A stretch of DNA of 16,069 nt from a virus (IMGVR_UViG_2526164651_000005), one strand, 5' to 3'. Shown: positions 7,168-16,069, counted from the first letter of the stretch. A program made the numbers and translations. Notes: generated by a model not told the origin, from the sequence alone.

Positions 7168-8325
7168 ATGCAGAGAATAATCGAATTACGCCAGCAGAAA
7201 ACCGCCATTAAAAATCAGATGCGCGACATGCTGGAGAACGCTGAAAAAGAAAACCGCAGTCTTAACGATGCTGAGGGCGCAAAATTTGACGAATTACGCG
7301 CTAAAGCTGAATCCCTCGCTAAAGACATTTCCCGCCTTGAAGCCATTGCAGACGAAGAGCGCAGCAAGCCAGGTAAAAGCAGCCAGACCACTGACCCCGC
7401 AGAACTACGCAACTACATTCTGACCGGTGAAACCCGCGCATTAAGTACAGGCGTTCCCGCTGATGGTGGTTATACCGTTATCCCTGAACTGAACACCGAA
7501 ATCATGCGAATGCTGGCGGATGAATCCACCATGCGCCGCATCTGTACCGTGAAGAAAATCAGCAGCAACGAGTTTAAGCAGCTTGTTTCCGCTGGCGGTG
7601 CGACCGTTAACCACGGTGAAGAGGGTAAGGCACGCGAACAGACCAGCACCCCGCAGATTAACGAGGTGAGCATTAAGCTGTATCCGGTCTATGCGTACCC
7701 GCGCACCACACAGGAAATCGTGGATTTTTCCGATGTGGACATCCTTTCATGGCTGACGGGTGAGATTGGCGACACCTTCACGGAAACCGAAGAAAGCGAT
7801 CTGGTTGTGGGCGACGGTGACAAAAAAGCAAAAGGTTTTTTATCCGTACCCCGTGCAGAGAAGAACGACAAAGAGCGTGATTTTGGTACGTTGCAGGTAA
7901 TTAAACCTTCCGAATCTCTGGCGTGGACATCTGCGGACCCGCTGATCGACCTGAAATTTGCATTACGTAAAAAATACCGCAAAAACACGGTCTGGGTGGT
8001 TAACTCCACGACGGCGGCAAAACTTCAGAAGGTGAAGAACGCGAACGGTGATTATATCTGGCGCGACCGTTTACAGGCGGGTGATCCTGATACGTTGCTG
8101 GGCCTTCCGGTCGAATATCTGGAGTTTATGCCTGATAACGTTATTGCCCTGGGTGACTTCAAACGCGGTTACTACATTGTTGATCACGAAACAGGTGTTC
8201 GCACCAGACCGGACAACCTGACAGAACCAGGATTCATCAAAATTTTCACGCAAAAATATTTAGGCGGTGGCGTGGTGGATTCGAACGCGATCAAGATTCT
8301 GGAACTGCCGGAAGACGACGATTAA
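7168..8325 (+). CDS. Major capsid protein, HK97 fold family, 385 aa
   Basis: Coiled-coil-like N-terminal delta/scaffold region (MQRIIELRQQKTAIKNQMRDMLENAEKE...) followed by a capsid body of typical HK97-like length. Gene context (protease and portal downstream). The track start at 7120 (GTG) was rejected in favour of the ATG at 7168. Confidence 0.9.
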   Translation: MQRIIELRQQKTAIKNQMRDMLENAEKENRSLNDAEGAKFDELRAKAESLAKDISRLEAIADEERSKPGKSSQTTDPAELRNYILTGETRALSTGVPADGGYTVIPELNTEIMRMLADESTMRRICTVKKISSNEFKQLVSAGGATVNHGEEGKAREQTSTPQINEVSIKLYPVYAYPRTTQEIVDFSDVDILSWLTGEIGDTFTETEESDLVVGDGDKKAKGFLSVPRAEKNDKERDFGTLQVIKPSESLAWTSADPLIDLKFALRKKYRKNTVWVVNSTTAAKLQKVKNANGDYIWRDRLQAGDPDTLLGLPVEYLEFMPDNVIALGDFKRGYYIVDHETGVRTRPDNLTEPGFIKIFTQKYLGGGVVDSNAIKILELPEDDD

Positions 8326-8335
8326 CAGCATACAG

Positions 8336-8364
8336 AAGGGGCTAAAAAGCCCCTTTAGTGTTTT
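8336..8364 (+). terminator. Intrinsic terminator-like hairpin after the capsid gene (AAGGGGCT-AAAA-AGCCCCTT, then TAGTGTTTT)
   Basis: Perfect 8-bp GC-rich stem with a 4-nt loop immediately after the capsid stop; the downstream T-tract is interrupted, suggesting a partial terminator. Confidence 0.5.
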
Positions 8365-8937
8365 ATGGGTGAAAAAATTATGAAGAGTATGGAAATCCGG
8401 TCATCGGAAATCACCACCAGCGGAGCCGGCACGCTGACGGGCTACGTTGTTCGCTGGGATAAGCTTTCAGAACTGTTATGGGGTGAGTTTTACGAAAAAT
8501 TCCAGCGGGGGGCGTTTACTGAATGGCTTGCGGCGGGTAATGACGTTCGCGGCCTGTATGAGCATGACCACAGCATGTTACTGGGGCGCACCCGTTCCGG
8601 CACGCTGAAACTGGAAGAGGACGAAACAGGGTTACGCTTTGAACTGACCCCACCGGATACCAGTACAGGGCGCGACGTTATCGAACTGGTTAAGCGTGGG
8701 GACATCTCGGGGATGAGCTTTGGCTTTCGCTCCCGTAAGGATGTATGGGATACCACAACAGATCCATGCGTGCGCACCGTGCTGGTGGCGGAACTGTACG
8801 AAATTACCGTTACATCGGTACCGGCTTACCCCGATTCCGGCGTGGAGCTGGCCCGCCGTTCCCTGTATGAGCAGCACCCCGAAAAAATGCCGCGTGCGGA
8901 TAATCGCCGCTGGTGGGCGGATTTAGCGGGGGTGTGA
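8365..8937 (+). CDS. Prohead maturation protease, HK97 family (about 185-190 aa)
   Basis: Size, position between capsid and portal genes, and HK97 prohead-protease-like sequence (…HDHSMLLGRTRSGTLKLEEDETGL…). Start is ambiguous between ATG 8365 and ATG 8380; the latter has GGGTGA upstream. Confidence 0.85.
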   Translation: MGEKIMKSMEIRSSEITTSGAGTLTGYVVRWDKLSELLWGEFYEKFQRGAFTEWLAAGNDVRGLYEHDHSMLLGRTRSGTLKLEEDETGLRFELTPPDTSTGRDVIELVKRGDISGMSFGFRSRKDVWDTTTDPCVRTVLVAELYEITVTSVPAYPDSGVELARRSLYEQHPEKMPRADNRRWWADLAGV

Positions 8938-8938
8938 T

Positions 8939-10150
8939 ATGTGGCCTTTCAGACGAAAAAAAGAGCAGCGCAGCATGACGCTTGATGAATTTATGGCGCT
9001 GGCCGGCACATCGAACACGGGGGCGGGTGAGTACGTATCATCTGGGACAGCGGAATCACTCCCCGCCGTCATGAACGCCGTCACGGTCATCTCTGAGGCG
9101 GTGGCTACCATGCCGTGTTACCTGTACCTGGTACGCAATGAGAAGGGGAAGGAGGCCCGCGAATGGCTTGATTCTCATCCGGTCGATCACATCCTCAACG
9201 AGCGCCCGAACGCGTGGCAGACACCCTACCAGTTTAAGCGAATGATGATCCGCCACTGCCTGTTAAGTGGTAATGCTTATGCGGTTATTCAGTGGGGGCG
9301 TGATGGTTTTCCGGCGGCTTTACATCCTTACCCGCCGCAGTCGGTGAACGTGGAGCAGACAGGTGATCATAACTGGCGCTACTGCATCACTGACGCCTAC
9401 ACCGGAAACACCCGCAACTATTTACCGTGGGAGGTTCTCCACCTTCGTTACTCCACGGATGACGGTTTTATGGGGCGCTCACCTGTAACCATCTGCCGCG
9501 AATCGCTGGGGCTTGGGCTGGCCCAACAACGCCACGGCGCGAGCGTGATGCGTGATGGCATGATGGCGGCAGGGGTTATCACGTCAGGCGAATGGCTGGA
9601 CGGCGTGAAGGGCAAACAGGCATTAGCCGCACTGGAACGCTACAAAGGGGCCAGAAACGCCGGAAAAACGCCCATCCTTGAAGGGGGGATGAGCTATCAG
9701 CAGCTGGGCATGAGTAATCAGGATGCCGAATGGCTGGCCTCCCGTCGCTTCACCATTGAAGACATCGCCCGAATGTTCAATGTCTCGCCGATTTTTTTGC
9801 AGGAATACAGCAACAGCACCTACAGCAACTTCAGCGAGGCAAGCCGCGCATTTCTCACCATGACGATGCGCCCGTGGCTGGCGAACTTTGAGCAGCAGAT
9901 AAAAAACGCCTTGCTGGTGGCCTCGCCTGTACCTGGTATCCGGTATCAGGTGGAGTTTGACAGCGCGGACCTGTTACGGGCCACACCTGGCGAACGCTTT
10001 GCCACCTATGAGCGCGGCATAAAATCCGGCGTTATGTGTCCGAACGAAGCCCGCGAACGTGAAGGGCTGTCACCGCGTGATGGTGGTGATGAGTTCAGCC
10101 AGGCATGGAAACAGGAAGTAAAAATCAGCGAGGGAGAAAAACCGGAATGA
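8939..10150 (+). CDS. Portal protein, HK97 family, 403 aa
   Basis: Length and sequence character of HK97-type portals; tightly coupled to the protease gene upstream and the head-closure gene downstream (overlapping ATGA). Confidence 0.9.
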   Translation: MWPFRRKKEQRSMTLDEFMALAGTSNTGAGEYVSSGTAESLPAVMNAVTVISEAVATMPCYLYLVRNEKGKEAREWLDSHPVDHILNERPNAWQTPYQFKRMMIRHCLLSGNAYAVIQWGRDGFPAALHPYPPQSVNVEQTGDHNWRYCITDAYTGNTRNYLPWEVLHLRYSTDDGFMGRSPVTICRESLGLGLAQQRHGASVMRDGMMAAGVITSGEWLDGVKGKQALAALERYKGARNAGKTPILEGGMSYQQLGMSNQDAEWLASRRFTIEDIARMFNVSPIFLQEYSNSTYSNFSEASRAFLTMTMRPWLANFEQQIKNALLVASPVPGIRYQVEFDSADLLRATPGERFATYERGIKSGVMCPNEAREREGLSPRDGGDEFSQAWKQEVKISEGEKPE

Positions 10151-10485
10151 ACATAGGGCGACTGCGTGACAGGATAACGATTCAGACCCTGAAACAGACC
10201 AGGGATATAACCGGCGAAATACTCGAAACGTGGGAGGACGGTCACACACTCTGGGCAAGCGTGAACATGGTCAGCAGCAAGGAGGCCATTTCATCGGGCG
10301 CAGAGCTGGCGATTGGTACCGTAAGGATCTGGATACGGTACCGGAAGGACATCAACGCCACCAGCCGGATAAAGGTCAGTACGGGGCCGCTGGCGGGGCG
10401 TGTACTGAATATCATCGGGCAGCCGCTGCCGGATGCCGCCAGGACACGCCTTGAAATTCTTTGTCGTGAGGGCGCGGAAAAATGA
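10147..10485 (+). CDS. Head-closure / head-tail joining protein (SPP1 gp16-like), 112 aa
   Basis: N-terminal MNIGRLRDRITIQ... and ...RIWIRYR... match the conserved pattern of phage head-tail joining proteins. ATG at 10147 overlaps the portal stop; AGGGAG lies upstream. Confidence 0.8.
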   Translation: MNIGRLRDRITIQTLKQTRDITGEILETWEDGHTLWASVNMVSSKEAISSGAELAIGTVRIWIRYRKDINATSRIKVSTGPLAGRVLNIIGQPLPDAARTRLEILCREGAEK

Positions 10486-10778
10486 CAGAAGAACTTATCA
10501 CCCTGGAAGAAGTGAAACTCCATTGCCGCATCGATGGCGACGATGAAGACCAGTTAATCAGCGGATACATTGCCGCATCGCTTGAGGCGTGCCAGATACA
10601 CATAGGCAGGCGCTTTGATGACGGGCTGGCGTTCACGCCAGCCATAAAGATTGGCTGCATGATGTTTATCGCTCACCTGTATGAAAATCGCCAGATTGTC
10701 GCGGATAACGCAAAAACACGCGTACCCATGACGATAGGCGCACTCTGGACGGCTTACCGTGATGTGGGGGTGTACTGA
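10482..10778 (+). CDS. gp6-like head-tail connector (adaptor) protein, 98 aa
   Basis: N-terminal ...ITLEEVKLHCRIDGDDEDQLISGYIAAS... resembles the gp6-like connector family. Start overlaps the upstream stop (ATGA). Confidence 0.75.
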   Translation: MTEELITLEEVKLHCRIDGDDEDQLISGYIAASLEACQIHIGRRFDDGLAFTPAIKIGCMMFIAHLYENRQIVADNAKTRVPMTIGALWTAYRDVGVY

Positions 10779-11218
10779 TGCCGTGGCAACCATTAAGACG
10801 ATGCACAGAACCAGGCTGTAACAGGCGCGTTAAATCCGGCAAGTGTGAGGAGCACAGGCGGGCGGCATGGCGTGCAGAGGATGCCAGACGAGGACACCGC
10901 CGCGCGCGTGGATATTCCAGACAGTGGGACAAATACCGCGCCATGTATCTGAGTAAAAACCCGTTATGCGTGCGATGCCTTGAGAAGGGGATATATACGC
11001 CCGCCGTGGTGGTGGATCACATTATCCCGATTAATGGCGGTGATGATGTTCTCTTCTGGCCCGAATGGAACCATCAACCATTGTGCCAGGCGTGTCATAA
11101 CCAGAAAACGAAATGGCTTGATCCGGCAACAAAAAGCAAGCGTGCCGCAGGTGGATTTCGTGAAGAGGAAGAACGGGCTGCTAACCGCAATAACTGGATG
11201 TATGACGCTGATGAATGA
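10778..11218 (+). CDS. HNH endonuclease (terminase-associated), 146 aa
   Basis: Cys-rich zinc-binding pairs (CTEPGC...C..H; C..C; C..C) and the HNH core (VDHIIPI...N.QPLC..CHN.K). Position directly upstream of TerS and TerL, as in HK97-like cos packaging modules. Confidence 0.85.
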   Translation: MPWQPLRRCTEPGCNRRVKSGKCEEHRRAAWRAEDARRGHRRARGYSRQWDKYRAMYLSKNPLCVRCLEKGIYTPAVVVDHIIPINGGDDVLFWPEWNHQPLCQACHNQKTKWLDPATKSKRAAGGFREEEERAANRNNWMYDADE

Positions 11219-11384
11219 GCGGGAACAAAACCGCCTTATCCGTGGACTTATAAGGCAGCGTGACGCATGGAAGACACAGGAAACAGGGCATAAAGATAAA
11301 GCGTCAGGACGCGCAGAACGCATCACAGCGAAGCGATTAACCGACCGTGACCGCGAGGTTATGGAATGTTTCCGCAATCGCTGA
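11211..11384 (+). CDS. Hypothetical small basic protein, 57 aa (MNEREQNRLIRGLIRQRDAWKTQETGHKDKASGRAERITAKRLTDRDREVMECFRNR)
   Basis: ATG overlaps the HNH stop (ATGAATGA), suggesting translational coupling. It is the tail of a longer alternative-frame ORF in the track, so low confidence. Confidence 0.3.
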   Translation: MNEREQNRLIRGLIRQRDAWKTQETGHKDKASGRAERITAKRLTDRDREVMECFRNR

Positions 11385-11506
11385 TGAGGCTGTATGATGG
11401 GGTGGGGGGCGTTTTCAGGACAAACCCGACCCCGCCGGGCACCGAACGCCTCCCCAAATTTTTATGCACGGGAATTTTTTGAAAAATAATCTGACGAAAA
11501 ATAAGC

Positions 11507-11863
11507 ATGGCAAGACCACCGAAAGCCCCCGCCTACCTGGATGATATCGCCGTGAAGCAGTGGCGGGAAAAATCGCGGCAGCTTGCGGAACGGGGAGACC
11601 TGACCCCCGCCGACTGGAGCAATCTGGAACTGTATTGCGTCAACTACTCCATTTACCGGAAAGCCGTTGCAGACCTTGCGGCGCGCGGGTTCAGCATTGT
11701 TAACAGTCAGGGCGGCGAGAGCAGAAACCCCGCATTAAGCGCAAAATCCGACGCTGAAAGAGTGATGATAAAAATGGCCTCCTTGCTCGGTTTTGACCCG
11801 ATAAGCCGCCGTAAAAATCCACCGGAAACAGAAGAAGAGGACGAGCTTGACTGCCTGGAATAA
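11507..11863 (+). CDS. terS: Terminase small subunit, P27 family, 118 aa
   Basis: Conserved P27-family pattern (W...L......D...L..YC..Y........G.........G....NPA.......M......GF.P.SR) and position immediately upstream of TerL. Confidence 0.75.
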   Translation: MARPPKAPAYLDDIAVKQWREKSRQLAERGDLTPADWSNLELYCVNYSIYRKAVADLAARGFSIVNSQGGESRNPALSAKSDAERVMIKMASLLGFDPISRRKNPPETEEEDELDCLE

Positions 11864-13508
11864 GTACGCAGAAGACGTAAAAACGGGCAAAATTCCGGCC
11901 TGTAAACGGTTAAAACAGGCTGTTAAACGGTACTTTTCGGACCTTAAAAGCCCCCTTTACACGTTCGATCGTGAGGTTGTGGAGCGGTTTATTGCCTTTT
12001 CCAGGGTGTGCCCGCACGTAAAAGGACCGATGCGTGGCAGACCCATTGAGCTGGAGCCGTGGCAGCAGTTCGCCTTTGCGTGCATCCTCGGCTTTAAGGT
12101 TAAGGCCACCGGACGGCGCAAATACACGAGCGCCTTTATCGAAGTGCCGCGCAAAAATGCGAAATCCACGACCGCCGCGATTCTGGCTAACTGGTTTCTG
12201 ATTATGGAGAACGGTCAGCAGGATATCTACACCGCAGCGGTGAGCCGTGACCAGGCGCGGATCGTGTTTGATGATGCGCGTCAGATGTGCCTTTTATCCC
12301 GACCGTTACGCAGGCGGGTGAATATTCAGGCGCATAAGGTGATACACCCGAAAAGCAACAGCCTGTTAAAGCCGCTGGCAGCAAAAGCGGCAACCATCGA
12401 GGGGACAAACCCCAGTCTTTCCATCGTGGACGAATACCACCTACACCCCGATAACGGCGTTTATTCCGCGCTTGAGCTGGGGATGGGCGCACGTCCCGAA
12501 GGGCTGTTATTTGCCATTACCACATCGGGCAGTAACGTCGTTTCAGCCTGTAAACAGCACTATGATTATTGCTGCCAGATCCTGGACGGCGAAGAGGTCA
12601 ACGATTCAATTTTTGTACTGATTTACGAACTGGACGACGAAAACGAGGTTGATGATCCGGCGATGTGGATAAAGGCGAACCCTAATATTGATGTTTCCGT
12701 GGATCGTGAAAAACTGGCCTCAACCATCCAGAAAGCGCGGGGTATTCCGTCGCAGTGGGTGGAGATGATGACAAAGCGATTTAATATCTGGTGTCAGGGG
12801 ACTACCCCGTGGATGGGTAATGGTGCATGGGCTGAGTGTGCCGGAACGTTCACGGAGGAAGATTTACACGGTCAGGAGTGTTACGCGGGGCTGGACTTAT
12901 CATCAACCAGCGATATTTCCAGCGTATGCTATGCCTTTCCGGTCGGTAAAACCATTATGCTGATTTCCCGTCATTATCTGCCGGAGTTCCAGCTACAGAA
13001 CCCCGCCAATAAAAACCGCGCTGTCTATCGCCAGTGGGCTAAAGCGGGCTGGATACGCACAACGCCAGGTGACTGCATTGATTACGACCGGATCAGAGAT
13101 GACATCATGCAGGATGCGGAGAAATTTAATATCAGGCTGGTGGGCTTTGATACGTGGAACGCCACGCATCTCAGGACGCAATTACAGGGGGCTGGTTTTG
13201 AGGTGGAGCCGTTCCCGCAAACCTACCTCAGATTCAGTCCGGCGGCGAAATCGTTCGAAGTTTTTGTTAACCGCAGGGTGATTGTGCATCGTGGCGATCC
13301 GGTGTTGTCCTGGTCGATGAGTAACGTCGTGATGCAGAGTGACGCGAACGCCAATATCAAGCCGAACAAGAAAAAATCACCGAACAAGATAGACCCGAGC
13401 GTAGCGGTGCTGATGGCGTTTGGTACATTCCAGGCAGAGCATGAGGCTTTTGCTTTTGATATAAGCGACAGCCACCGCCAGAAACTGGAAGAATTTAGCG
13501 GGGTGTAA
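11847..13508 (+). CDS. terL: Terminase large subunit (ATPase/nuclease), 553 aa
   Basis: Length and sequence features of large terminases. Probable TTG start at 11847 with GAGGA 5 nt upstream, overlapping the end of terS. Start codon uncertain. Confidence 0.9.
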   Translation: MTAWNKYAEDVKTGKIPACKRLKQAVKRYFSDLKSPLYTFDREVVERFIAFSRVCPHVKGPMRGRPIELEPWQQFAFACILGFKVKATGRRKYTSAFIEVPRKNAKSTTAAILANWFLIMENGQQDIYTAAVSRDQARIVFDDARQMCLLSRPLRRRVNIQAHKVIHPKSNSLLKPLAAKAATIEGTNPSLSIVDEYHLHPDNGVYSALELGMGARPEGLLFAITTSGSNVVSACKQHYDYCCQILDGEEVNDSIFVLIYELDDENEVDDPAMWIKANPNIDVSVDREKLASTIQKARGIPSQWVEMMTKRFNIWCQGTTPWMGNGAWAECAGTFTEEDLHGQECYAGLDLSSTSDISSVCYAFPVGKTIMLISRHYLPEFQLQNPANKNRAVYRQWAKAGWIRTTPGDCIDYDRIRDDIMQDAEKFNIRLVGFDTWNATHLRTQLQGAGFEVEPFPQTYLRFSPAAKSFEVFVNRRVIVHRGDPVLSWSMSNVVMQSDANANIKPNKKKSPNKIDPSVAVLMAFGTFQAEHEAFAFDISDSHRQKLEEFSGV

Positions 13509-13521
13509 TGAGGTCAGCAGC

Positions 13522-13803
13522 ATGACAGAAGCCGAAATACTGCGATTAATCCGCCGCGTCTCTGGAATCAGCCAGCAGGCTGACGAACAGACCACGCAGC
13601 CGGACAGCGTGACAGCCGAAAATTATGCGCGTGTTGTTGCTGAGGTGATGCGCCGTGATGGTATCCAGCTTAATGATGCGGATATGCGCGACATACGGAT
13701 CCGCGTTCTGGAAATGCTGGCCTACAATCGCCGCGTTGAACTGTATCGGGAGAAGGAGAAAATCACGTACCACTGGAAGAAGCCGGAGCGGTTACGGCGG
13801 TAA
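13522..13803 (+). CDS. Hypothetical protein, 93 aa (last ORF of the element)
   Basis: GAGGT about 10 nt upstream of the ATG. No recognisable family. Confidence 0.45.
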   Translation: MTEAEILRLIRRVSGISQQADEQTTQPDSVTAENYARVVAEVMRRDGIQLNDADMRDIRIRVLEMLAYNRRVELYREKEKITYHWKKPERLRR

Positions 13804-14052
13804 CTCACTGAGATTAAAGCAAAGCGCAAAATTGCGCTGGCTACATCCCTCACATCTGAGGACTGTTAACCAGCAGGCCGGAATATATTCACAAACTACG
13901 AAATTTTCGCAGTTTAATTACTCGTCAGCTTAATCGCTAACCCGCTCTGATATTTTCGGAAACCTCAATTTGAGGAAGTCGGCGAGGTAACTGTTTGATA
14001 TTCCCGATAGCGCAAAAATGCGCGGTCGGGCAGAATGACCACCACCTCAATC

Positions 14053-14088
14053 GTGACGGAGAGTGACAACCAGTGACACACCGTGACA
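14053..14088. repeat. Four GTGAC(A) motifs at exact 10-bp phasing (14053, 14063, 14073, 14083); candidate binding array for a recombination or regulatory protein
   Basis: Read directly from cGTGACggag aGTGACaacc aGTGACacac cGTGACaaaa. The helical-repeat spacing places all sites on one DNA face. Confidence 0.45.
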
Positions 14089-14140
14089 AAAAGACGGTTT
14101 AACCGTTCATTAAAAATCGACGTGATTTTGTGCTTTCCGG

Positions 14141-14165
14141 ATGACGTGGCCAACGTCATTTTTTA
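14141..14165 (+). terminator. Rho-independent terminator (ATGACGT-GGCCA-ACGTCAT followed by T6)
   Basis: Perfect 7-bp stem with a 5-nt loop and TTTTTT at 14160..14165. On the minus strand no U-tract follows, so it is orientation-specific to the plus strand. Confidence 0.6.
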
Positions 14166-14466
14166 GCGAAAAATTCTGATTAAGGTCACTGGCTGAACGG
14201 TCATAATGACCACGCAGACCATCGAGGCAACCATAGCGATCATCGTTACGGTTGGAGCTTTTCCGCCATTGGTGGAAAAGGTGCACATCTGGATCATCAT
14301 TACGGTGATCAAGGGTATGTAAAACCCACCAGCCTGATTAAAGGTTAACCGGAAAAAAATCCGGTAGCCCCGTTATGGGGATCCCCATATCGACATTAAC
14401 GCCCCTCATGAATTGGTGCGCTTCCCCCTGGAAAGATTACCCGCCTGTATATTTCTTGTGTCTATT

Positions 14467-14481
14467 TGTTCCACGTTGTTT
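14467..14481. repeat. Second copy of the 15-bp motif TTGTTCCACGTTGTT (also at 6938..6952)
   Basis: Exact 15-bp identity between two loci about 7.5 kb apart in the same element; both are preceded by TATTTGTTC. Confidence 0.5.
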
Positions 14482-14498
14482 CATACAGTGCACCGAAC

Positions 14499-14522
14499 GG
14501 TGTAGTTAATGGTGTAGTCAAT
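14499..14522. repeat. Tandem 12-bp direct repeat GGTGTAGTTAAT / GGTGTAGTCAAT, with a (CTTGA)x3 tract nearby at 14573..14587, close to the phoQ 3' end
   Basis: Read directly. Located in the non-coding stretch between the element cargo and the phoQ stop codon; candidate att or arm-site region. Confidence 0.35.
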
Positions 14523-14608: not shown

Positions 14609-16069
14609 TTATTCATCTTTCGGCGCAGAATGCTGGCGACCAAAAATCACCTCCATCCGCGCACCGCCCAGCATGCTCTCTCCGGCGACGATTTTACCCT
14701 CATATTGCTCGGTGATTTCGCGGGCTACCGCCAGCCCTACACCTTGCCCAGGGCGTAAAGTATCAACCCGTTGACCACGGTCGAAAATGATCTCTCGCTT
14801 GCTTAATGGAATACCGGGGCCATCATCCTCGACCACAATATAGAGATGCTCGTCGGTTTGCCTTGCAGAAATTTCGACAAACTCGAGGCAATATTTACAG
14901 GCATTATCCAGCACGTTGCCCATCACCTCGACAAAATCGTTCTGCTCACCGACAAAGCTGATCTCTGGCGAAATATCGAGAGAGATATTGACCCCTTTGC
15001 GTTGATACACTTTGTTCAGCGCTGAGGTGAGATTGTCCAGCAGTGGGGCGACCGGATGCAGCTCGCGGCTGAGCAATGTCCCGCCGCGCATACTGGCACG
15101 ATGCAGGTAGTAGCCAATTTGCTGTGAAATGCGGCTGATTTGCTCCAGCATTACCGGCTCAGCATCACTGACGCTCATCTTTTCACTACGCAGAGAACGC
15201 AGCGTACTTTGCAGCACCGCCAGTGGCGTTTTCAGACTATGGGTCAGGTCGGTGAGCGTCGTACGGTATTTGTCGTAACGTTCGCGTTCACTTTTTAACA
15301 ATCGGTTCAGGTTTCGTACCAGACTGGTCAGTTCTCGCGTTGTGGCTGGATTGAGCAATTCGCGGTTATGTTCTTCCAGTTCGCGGACTTCTTTTGCCAG
15401 GGCTTCGATGGGGCGTAAACTCCACCAGGCGGCGACCCACAGCAGCGGGATCACTAACAGCAGATTGGCTGAGAGCACATAGATAAACCAGCTCCAGACC
15501 ATATAGGAACTTTTTAGCTCCACCGGAATGGTATCCACCACCACAATGGTTAATTTTGGCATCCGCGATGTTGCCGGGTAGACGTTTACCGCCACCGAGT
15601 GGGTCATCTCCGCGTCGTCATCATCTTCCCGCACTTCCTGCAACTGTTGCTGTATCGAATGATCTCCACTCAGCAAGAGGCTGGTATCGTTAACATCCGC
15701 TTCAATTTCATGAAAACCATTCGATTTCAGCCAGTCAGGCTGGATCATTTTCATCAGCCAGGGCACGTCACGTTGCGCCCATAAAAGCTGCCCGTTCTCA
15801 TCATAAATTAGCGTCATGGTGGGGCTTTGCTTGTCGATATTTTCGGGTAACTCGACATGCAACTTATTGTTTTCCCACTGCGCAAGGGTATAGAACAGAT
15901 TGCTCTCGCCACGTAACAGCCGAAACGTAGTTTTATCGAAACTGACGCTATAACCGATCAGCGCGACCATTCCGTAGGCAAGCGAAAGCACCAGTACTAC
16001 CGCTGCCGTTGCCAACAGAAAACGTACCCGCAGCGAGAGCGGGAAAAAAAGACGCAGTAATTTTTTCAT
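14609..16069 (-). CDS. phoQ: Sensor histidine kinase PhoQ (PhoP/PhoQ two-component system), 486 aa, host chromosomal gene
   Basis: Full-length translation matches E. coli PhoQ by recollection ([25 protein letters not shown]... through ...[18 protein letters not shown]). Contains the histidine-kinase H-box ([12 protein letters not shown]) and the ATPase G-boxes ([14 protein letters not shown]). The start codon is the last three bases of the window. Confidence 0.97.

Follow-up and report, generated by a model that had tools for sequence, protein, structure and literature searches.

A capsid-and-packaging operon of the EcCIEDL933 type in a capsid-forming phage-inducible chromosomal island

The viral sequence IMGVR_UViG_2526164651_000005, a stretch of 16,069 nucleotides (nt) hereafter called the window, carries between positions 7168 and 13508 a compact series of nine capsid-and-packaging genes. 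Assignment by Pfam and PHROGs places all of them on the + strand, in the order major capsid protein (MCP), prohead protease, portal, head closure protein Hc1, head-tail adaptor Ad1, HNH endonuclease, an open reading frame (ORF) of 60 amino acids (aa), TerS and TerL. They are listed here with their identities to EcCIEDL933, the prototype capsid-forming phage-inducible chromosomal island (cf-PICI), together with the two non-coding features of the module.

7168-8325, + strand: major capsid protein, HK97 fold (PF05065, E = 5e-61; 98.4% identical to EcCIEDL933)
8335-8356, + strand: terminator-like hairpin after the capsid gene (GGGGC-loop-GCCCC plus a T-run)
8365-8937, + strand: prohead serine protease S78 (PF04586, E = 7e-48; 97.9% identical to EcCIEDL933)
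8939-10150, + strand: portal (PF04860, E = 4.8e-90; 98.8% identical to EcCIEDL933)
10147-10485, + strand: head closure protein Hc1, called 'adaptor' by He et al. (PF05521, phrog_25; 96.4% identical to EcCIEDL933)
10482-10778, + strand: gp6-like head-tail adaptor Ad1, called 'connector' by He et al. (PF05135, phrog_40; 98.0% identical to EcCIEDL933)
10778-11218, + strand: HNH endonuclease, packaging cofactor (PF01844, phrog_144; 99.3% identical to EcCIEDL933)
11202-11384, + strand: 60-aa ORF, homologue of EcCIEDL933 gene 1792 (phrog_3173, E = 7.5e-37; annotated in EDL933)
11385-11506, no strand: G+C-rich non-coding spacer of 122 nt, the inferred location of cos (from its sequence and the breaks of linear records)
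11507-11863, + strand: TerS, P27 family (PF05119, E = 1.3e-23; 100% identical to EcCIEDL933 over the aligned part)
11847-13508, + strand: TerL, with a TTG start (PF03354 and PF20441; 98.4% identical to EcCIEDL933)

All ORFs of the module are intact and tightly packed, and the Pfam scores of the capsid protein, protease and portal lie far above the curated cut-offs. Residues 1-553 of TerL are matched in relatives, and the RefSeq start in EDL933 is identical. The capsid protein is near-identical to one whose structure has been determined in a T=4 shell (PDB 9gyi, E = 1.9e-252), with few differences in 385 residues; the next-closest solved capsid is not that of HK97 but that of the Rhodobacter capsulatus gene transfer agent (6tb9, E = 3e-46). 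A preliminary description of this DNA had given the gene order correctly, and its outer coordinates, 7168 and 13508, are exact gene ends, but it had overlooked the 60-aa ORF. It had also described the genes as all translationally coupled through five ATGA-type overlaps, which overstates what the junctions contain. The strict ATGA overlap occurs at two junctions only, portal/Hc1 and Hc1/Ad1. Ad1 and HNH share a single nucleotide in TGATG, TerS and TerL overlap by 17 nt, and protease and portal abut as TGAtATG with no overlap. Capsid and protease genes are separated by a 39-nt gap that holds the hairpin, and HNH and TerS by a 288-nt gap occupied by the 60-aa ORF and then the non-coding spacer, so that the series contains two clear breaks in coupling.

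We consider it highly probable that the nine genes of 7168-13508 form the capsid-and-packaging operon of an EcCIEDL933-type cf-PICI, lying on an island of about 14.5 kb integrated between roxA and phoQ, and found nothing that contradicts this assignment. By megablast, the module matches Escherichia coli O157:H7 EDL933 at 97.3% identity across 100% of its length, and the EDL933 counterpart sits between roxA and phoQ with the same annotated gene series. The module was present in 538 of 5426 complete E. coli genomes, chromosomal in every case; its presence in only about 10% of E. coli genomes fits a mobile element. The window as a whole is an E. coli-type chromosomal island that starts with a tyrosine integrase and ends just before phoQ, and its parts outside the module are as follows.

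1-1230, + strand: tyrosine integrase (Pfam Arm-DNA-bind_3 and Phage_integrase; 99.8% identical to the EcCIEDL933 integrase)
1605-1793, + strand: AlpA regulator (Pfam Phage_AlpA, E = 5e-18; 96.8% identical to EDL933)
3692-5443, + strand: D5-type primase/helicase, 583 aa (Pfam D5_N, DUF5906 and Pox_D5)
5539-5699, no strand: origin-like repeats downstream of the primase gene (inverted repeat 5539-5554/5598-5613; four tandem TAAGGTAGA units at 5664-5699)
6887-6904, + strand: terminator-like hairpin directly upstream of the head operon, with an identical copy at 6524-6541
6928-6952, + strand: two overlapping TTGTTNNNNNTTGTT motifs upstream of the capsid gene, a candidate regulator-binding site
13522-13803, + strand: 93-aa ORF of unknown function after terL (phrog_1561, E = 1.5e-55; 93.5% identical to EDL933)
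14498-14518, no strand: attR core CGGTGTAGTTAATGGTGTAGT, 21 bp, marking where the island ends on the right, with the phoQ stop codon about 90 nt away
14609-16069, - strand: phoQ, the right-hand neighbour of the island

In EDL933 the island is flanked by the 21-bp direct repeat CGGTGTAGTTAATGGTGTAGT at L001:1205 and L001:16433, 15,228 bp from core to core. The present island begins about 46 nt before the first position of the window, and the attR core at 14498-14518 thus gives it a length of about 14.5 kb, compared with 15.2 kb for the prototype. The att site is not a tRNA gene, since a tRNA scan of the window was empty; an Rfam scan of the whole window with E up to 0.1 also gave no match. The two islands share the roxA-phoQ site, the 21-bp att core, the order of the nine-gene operon with proteins 96-100% identical, the hairpin after the capsid gene and the cos spacer. 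They differ in the replication protein, which is a DUF927 protein in EcCIEDL933 and the D5-type 583-aa primase here (only 53% identity, across 232 aa), and also in a number of small ORFs located from alpA to the capsid gene and in the divergent stretch from orf93 to attR. Since a different replication module is combined here with a near-identical packaging module, the window is a mosaic variant of EcCIEDL933. Two of the divergent regions deserve a description of their own. The roughly 700 nt between the 93-aa ORF and attR (13804-14497), the usual place for accessory or defence genes in cf-PICIs, diverge from EDL933 and contain no ORF longer than 64 aa. Downstream of alpA, a 248-aa ORF (1851-2597) corresponds to a hypothetical protein in EDL933 and has no Pfam or PHROG match; its substitutions relative to EDL933 show no codon-position bias (11/19/18), with about 10% divergence vs 0.3% in int, and it may not be coding in that frame.

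The prototype has been characterized in detail. In EcCIEDL933, mutation of each packaging-module gene abolished transfer, except for gene 1792, whose mutation reduced it severely; the island makes its own small capsids, packages its own DNA specifically and needs only the tails of its helper HK106 (Alqurainy et al., bioRxiv 10.1101/2022.09.08.507074). According to published genetics, AlpA is required for its induction and the prototype is experimentally mobile. The capsids are tail-less T=4 heads, and exchanging the adaptor and connector genes alters phage tail usage (He et al., bioRxiv 10.1101/2025.02.11.637232). The SatelliteFinder definition of cf-PICIs comprises 11 core components, with tail and holin genes absent (de Sousa et al. 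2023, PMC10085698). All 11 core components were found in the window, with integrase, AlpA and primase in the left half, followed by the island's own capsid protein, protease and portal, by Hc1 and Ad1, and by HNH, TerS and TerL, in the organization known from proteobacterial cf-PICIs. Of the 'forbidden' components (tail, holin and lysis genes) none was seen: Pfam and PHROGs assigned no scanned ORF from int to attR to a tail or lysis family. Classical E. coli PICIs of the EcCICFT073 type share the int-alpA-replication left half and AlpA-dependent induction but, according to the published account, lack capsid, portal, TerL and head-completion genes and redirect helper capsids instead.

The module stands well apart from its phage homologues. 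In a tblastn comparison with 50,697 phage records, TerL reached at most 36% identity in real phages (Brucella BiPBO1, Vibrio K303) and the capsid protein about 33-40% (Yersinia YeP1, ST64B, Pseudomonas phages). Identities of 57-82% for TerL and capsid were reached only by satellite-type records, namely vB_KppS-Ant (16.5 kb), Pmp7 and Pmp8 (10.7 and 15.3 kb), a fragment of 3.8 kb and the satellite segment within the chimeric record P12620-1 (106 kb). Near-identity to a particular phage clade was therefore not found, and these values, set beside 96-100% protein identity to EcCIEDL933, bear out the proposal of a dedicated, separately evolving satellite packaging module. Klebsiella phage P12620-1 was considered as a large phage carrying the module and rejected as an assembly concatenation; there, the module fills the terminal ~16 kb in a cos-to-cos permutation, its junction with unrelated DNA coincides exactly with the start of TerS, and the 1792-like ORF is cut off by the end of the record. 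Published trees of the capsid protein and TerL likewise part cf-PICIs from phage homologues (Alqurainy et al., bioRxiv 10.1101/2022.09.08.507074). HK97 and HK106, cos/HNH-type lambdoid phages that include the known helper, use the same protein families for all eight functions and carry, like the island, a putative terminator after the capsid gene. Their identities to the island proteins are low, at 26% for portal, 27% for TerL and 26% for Ad1 (E = 2e-5), with MCP, protease and TerS undetectable by BLAST; the island lacks their tail and lysis genes, and the prototype heads are T=4, whereas the helper heads are T=7 (He et al., bioRxiv 10.1101/2025.02.11.637232). An intact HK97-like temperate phage would be expected to have tail, lysis and immunity genes and the phage gene order, whereas the island measures about 14.5 kb, has no tail or lysis genes and differs in gene order.

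The gene order itself departs from that of phages in two ways: the head genes lie upstream of HNH and not downstream of TerL, and two sub-blocks run in reverse order. Seven phages were sampled individually, as the IMG/VR scan described below does not reach distant phages, and all of them (HK97, HK106, BiPBO1, YeP1, vB_EcoM-606R7, VW-6S and ST64B) share the standard order (HNH-)TerS-TerL-portal-protease-MCP-Ad1-Hc1-tail genes. The reversal of the portal/protease/capsid trio can be read directly from the sequence: the island has MCP-protease-portal instead of portal-protease-MCP, and likewise Hc1-Ad1 instead of Ad1-Hc1, all on the same strand and without any strand inversion. The reversed order was absent from all seven phages, as the preliminary description had anticipated. 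The order capsid-protease-portal-head connectors followed by hnh-terS-terL in proteobacterial cf-PICIs, and its contrast with phages, has been published (Alqurainy et al., bioRxiv 10.1101/2022.09.08.507074).

The terminal position of the terminase genes has a different meaning. The record of vB_KppS-Ant, an induced prophage, is linear: its first position lies 22 nt ahead of terS and its last one shortly past the 1792-like ORF, and the satellite part of P12620-1 breaks within the same spacer. Since the ends of cf-PICI DNA are cohesive (He et al., bioRxiv 10.1101/2025.02.11.637232), these breaks probably place cos within 11385-11506. Given this location, the packaged map would therefore read cos-TerS-TerL-(orf93)-attP-int-alpA-replication-MCP-protease-portal-Hc1-Ad1-HNH-1792-cos, with TerS-TerL leftmost and HNH close to the right end, followed by the short 1792 ORF. 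The HK97 map is similar in starting with TerS-TerL and finishing with HNH, and in both HK97 and HK106 HNH adjoins cos, with TerS-TerL just beyond. The statement that the terminase genes come last thus holds for the integrated map but not as a departure from phages: it follows from the position of attP, immediately downstream of terL, and HNH-cos-TerS-TerL keeps the phage arrangement. The spacer is also the site of a lesion in the Shigella flexneri SFBU1023 copy (L005), which is otherwise about 97.6-99.7% identical in DNA. A 90-nt deletion between CCCCGCC repeats, corresponding to window positions 11437-11526, takes out the beginning of terS together with most of the presumed cos spacer, and this copy is probably immobile as a result.

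A genome scan with TerL yielded 80 loci in Enterobacterales, Pasteurellales, Orbales and Aeromonas, at 68-99% TerL identity. The order MCP-protease-portal-(Hc1)-Ad1-HNH-(1792)-TerS-TerL was found in 58 of the 58 genome loci with an uncut module; the 60-aa 1792-like ORF was found by tblastn in 23 of these 58. A second scan, of IMG/VR, used a capsid alignment that included two phage capsids; its best 80 loci were all satellite-type, and about 72 of them, mostly contigs of 13-18 kb, have the same order, the remaining ones being truncated. The module order is conserved far beyond chance and is a fixed signature of the gammaproteobacterial cf-PICI clade. TerL identity across bacterial orders is 68-81%, and the spread of the clade over several orders at this level argues for an old origin. 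Among these relatives, 'Escherichia phage vB_KppS-Ant' (LR881103; KpCIDSM30104-like) has the same order and content, with identities of 81% for TerL and portal, 83% for TerS, 72% for HNH, 65% for capsid, 62% for Ad1 and only 38% for Hc1. The Pasteurella 'phages' Pmp7 and Pmp8 are other gammaproteobacterial cf-PICIs of the same order and content. The integration, regulation and replication modules of gammaproteobacterial cf-PICIs differ from those of the window, and some relatives lack Hc1.

Several loci from the scans have unusual structures. In L103 and L104 (IMG/VR UViG_2541047774_000008 and UViG_2917393062_000003), a cf-PICI is inserted in a prophage terL gene, giving the order phage TerL N-terminal part, int, satellite, phage TerL C-terminal part, phage portal, capsid and connector, so that the satellite and phage orders are adjacent on one contig. 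In L050 (Xenorhabdus hominickii) and L076 (Gilliamella), int-alpA is followed directly by Hc1-Ad1-HNH-TerS-TerL, and in L047 (X. kozodoii) only HNH-TerS-TerL is kept. No capsid, protease or portal match was found at these three loci, though the contigs reach further upstream, and they may be deleted remnants or a reduced variant.

These comparisons also weigh on three other origins for the locus. A decayed, cryptic HK97-like prophage, stripped of tail, lysis and regulatory genes and with its remaining head genes scrambled through deletions and rearrangements, would be compatible with the HK97-type families of all head and packaging proteins, and degenerate copies such as the Shigella flexneri one, without the cos spacer and the TerS start, do exist. 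In addition, the annotation of ST64B carries a note that likens one of its proteins to 'CP-933C', which we take to be the cryptic-prophage name of this EDL933 region. However, decay would hardly leave all ORFs intact, nor would it reproduce one order and content at 58 species-level loci in genomes and on about 72 contigs of IMG/VR. Integrase, alpA and primase form a left half of the PICI type, identity to any phage is at most about 40%, and the prototype is mobile in experiments, all of which makes a cryptic prophage very unlikely.

We give still less credence to a recent capture of a phage head module by a classical PICI, even though classical E. coli PICIs have matching int and alpA genes and Hc1 is phage-like (47-54% identity to Hc1 of temperate phages). 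Across the 50,697 phage records, real phages reach only 36% identity for TerL and 33-40% for the capsid protein, no tailed phage combining this order with more than about 80% identity in both proteins was found, the sampled phages lack the order, several bacterial orders carry the module at 68-81% TerL identity, and the published trees separate cf-PICIs from phages. Similarly remote is a host-domesticated, gene-transfer-agent-like system packaging random host DNA. The small heads, the lack of tail genes and the Rhodobacter gene transfer agent as source of the next-closest solved capsid point in that direction, but the island possesses its own integrase, att sites, replication module, TerS and cos-type spacer, occurs in only about a tenth of E. 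coli genomes, and has a prototype that packages its own DNA specifically.

Within this cf-PICI operon, Hc1 behaves differently from the other head proteins. It has a near-identical solved structure (PDB 2kz4, E = 2.7e-70) and aligns without gaps to HK106/HK97 gp7 at 47% identity, and its best matches in the phage database are temperate Klebsiella and E. coli phages (48-54%). For Ad1, TerL and the capsid protein, the best matches are sibling satellites. Across the genome loci, the median identity of Hc1 to the window is 41%, vs 57-77% for the other assigned module genes and 42% for the 1792 ORF. Hc1 is thus phage-like and poorly conserved among siblings, which fits a docking face matched to the helper, with Ad1 fitting the island's own portal, and the sequences suggest that Hc1 is a cassette exchanged with phages. 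The preliminary description had proposed both head-completion proteins as the docking interface for stolen helper tails; the published effect of the adaptor and connector swap on tail use agrees with this proposal, and the refinement is that only Hc1 looks helper-matched.

In 25 of 136 related loci (about 18%), there is no gene between portal and Ad1. These comprise L022, L027, L029, L031, L052, L057, L066, L067 and L082 together with 16 IMG/VR loci (e.g. L099-L107). Flanking phage genes were found in only 2 of the 25, giving no clear link between the lack of Hc1 and an embedding in prophages. One of these loci lies in Yersinia aleksiciae (L066). None of the scanned ORFs of that island is a Phage_HCP gene; terL is followed there by an AIPR gene, with a PrtN-like activator encoded upstream of the capsid protein.

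Putative regulatory features of the operon are also found in relatives. The GGGGC/GCCCC hairpin with its T-run occurs in 47 of 48 distinct capsid-protease spacers of relatives, whereas in Proteus this position is taken by a different stem of greater length. With the capsid gene first and the hairpin next, we hypothesize a stoichiometric expression gradient, in which the later genes would supply the lower-copy parts (protease, portal, completion proteins and terminase). Three linked readings can be drawn from these patterns, the reversed order as an expression ramp, Hc1 as an exchangeable helper-derived cassette, and Hc1-less relatives that borrow the helper head closure together with the tail; taken together they are tentative, and we hold them to be possible rather than likely.

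The motif TTGTTCCACGTTGTT, a TTGTT repeat with 10-nt spacing, has 8 matches with at most 3 mismatches in the window vs 0.64 expected. The sites lie at 1278-1322 (- strand) between int and alpA, at 6928-6952 (+ strand), shortly past the hairpin that precedes the head operon, and at 14466-14480 (+ strand), 18 nt from the attR core. Of 127 distinct relatives, 26 also carry the motif upstream of the capsid gene, at -202 to -246 relative to its start and on the + strand in each case, and a similar sequence lies left of attL in EDL933. The TTGTTNNNNNTTGTT motif is a candidate binding site for a regulator. A scan of the + strand upstream of the capsid gene detected no sigma-70-like promoter. In the same region, two identical 23-nt hairpins (CAGCCGGAGCAATCCGGCTTTTT) at 6523-6545 and 6886-6908 flank a 100-aa ORF (6565-6867), and the capsid leader contains a 17-nt inverted repeat (7030-7046/7061-7077). 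The repeats at 5539-5699 are a putative replication origin, judging by their position downstream of the primase gene.

By analogy with the prototype, an HK106-type lambdoid helper would trigger AlpA-dependent induction, upon which the island would excise at the 21-bp att core and replicate by means of its own primase and the iteron region 5539-5699. Its own HK97-fold capsid protein, protease and portal would build small T=4 heads, and its own TerS, TerL and HNH, with the 60-aa 1792-like protein, would cut and package the island DNA at the putative cos upstream of terS. The portal would then be closed by Ad1 and subsequently by Hc1, through which the filled, tail-less head would join a helper-made tail. 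All of these steps except cos cleavage have been shown for EcCIEDL933, and their extension to the present copy is based on near-identity.

The core of this interpretation is already known: the gene order, the separation of capsid and TerL from phages, and tail specificity through the two head-completion proteins have all been published. The window, as a close variant of EcCIEDL933, represents no new kind of system. The preliminary description, made from the sequence alone, was correct apart from the overstated coupling, although the system was already known in detail, and it illustrates that a reader with only the sequence at hand can recognize a cf-PICI and infer its biology correctly. The additions made here are modest and consist of Hc1 as a helper-matched cassette, the Hc1-less relatives, the conserved attenuator-like hairpin after the capsid gene and the repeated motif upstream of the operon. 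As established on EcCIEDL933, cf-PICIs build their own heads and borrow only phage tails, and they can thereby cross species boundaries.

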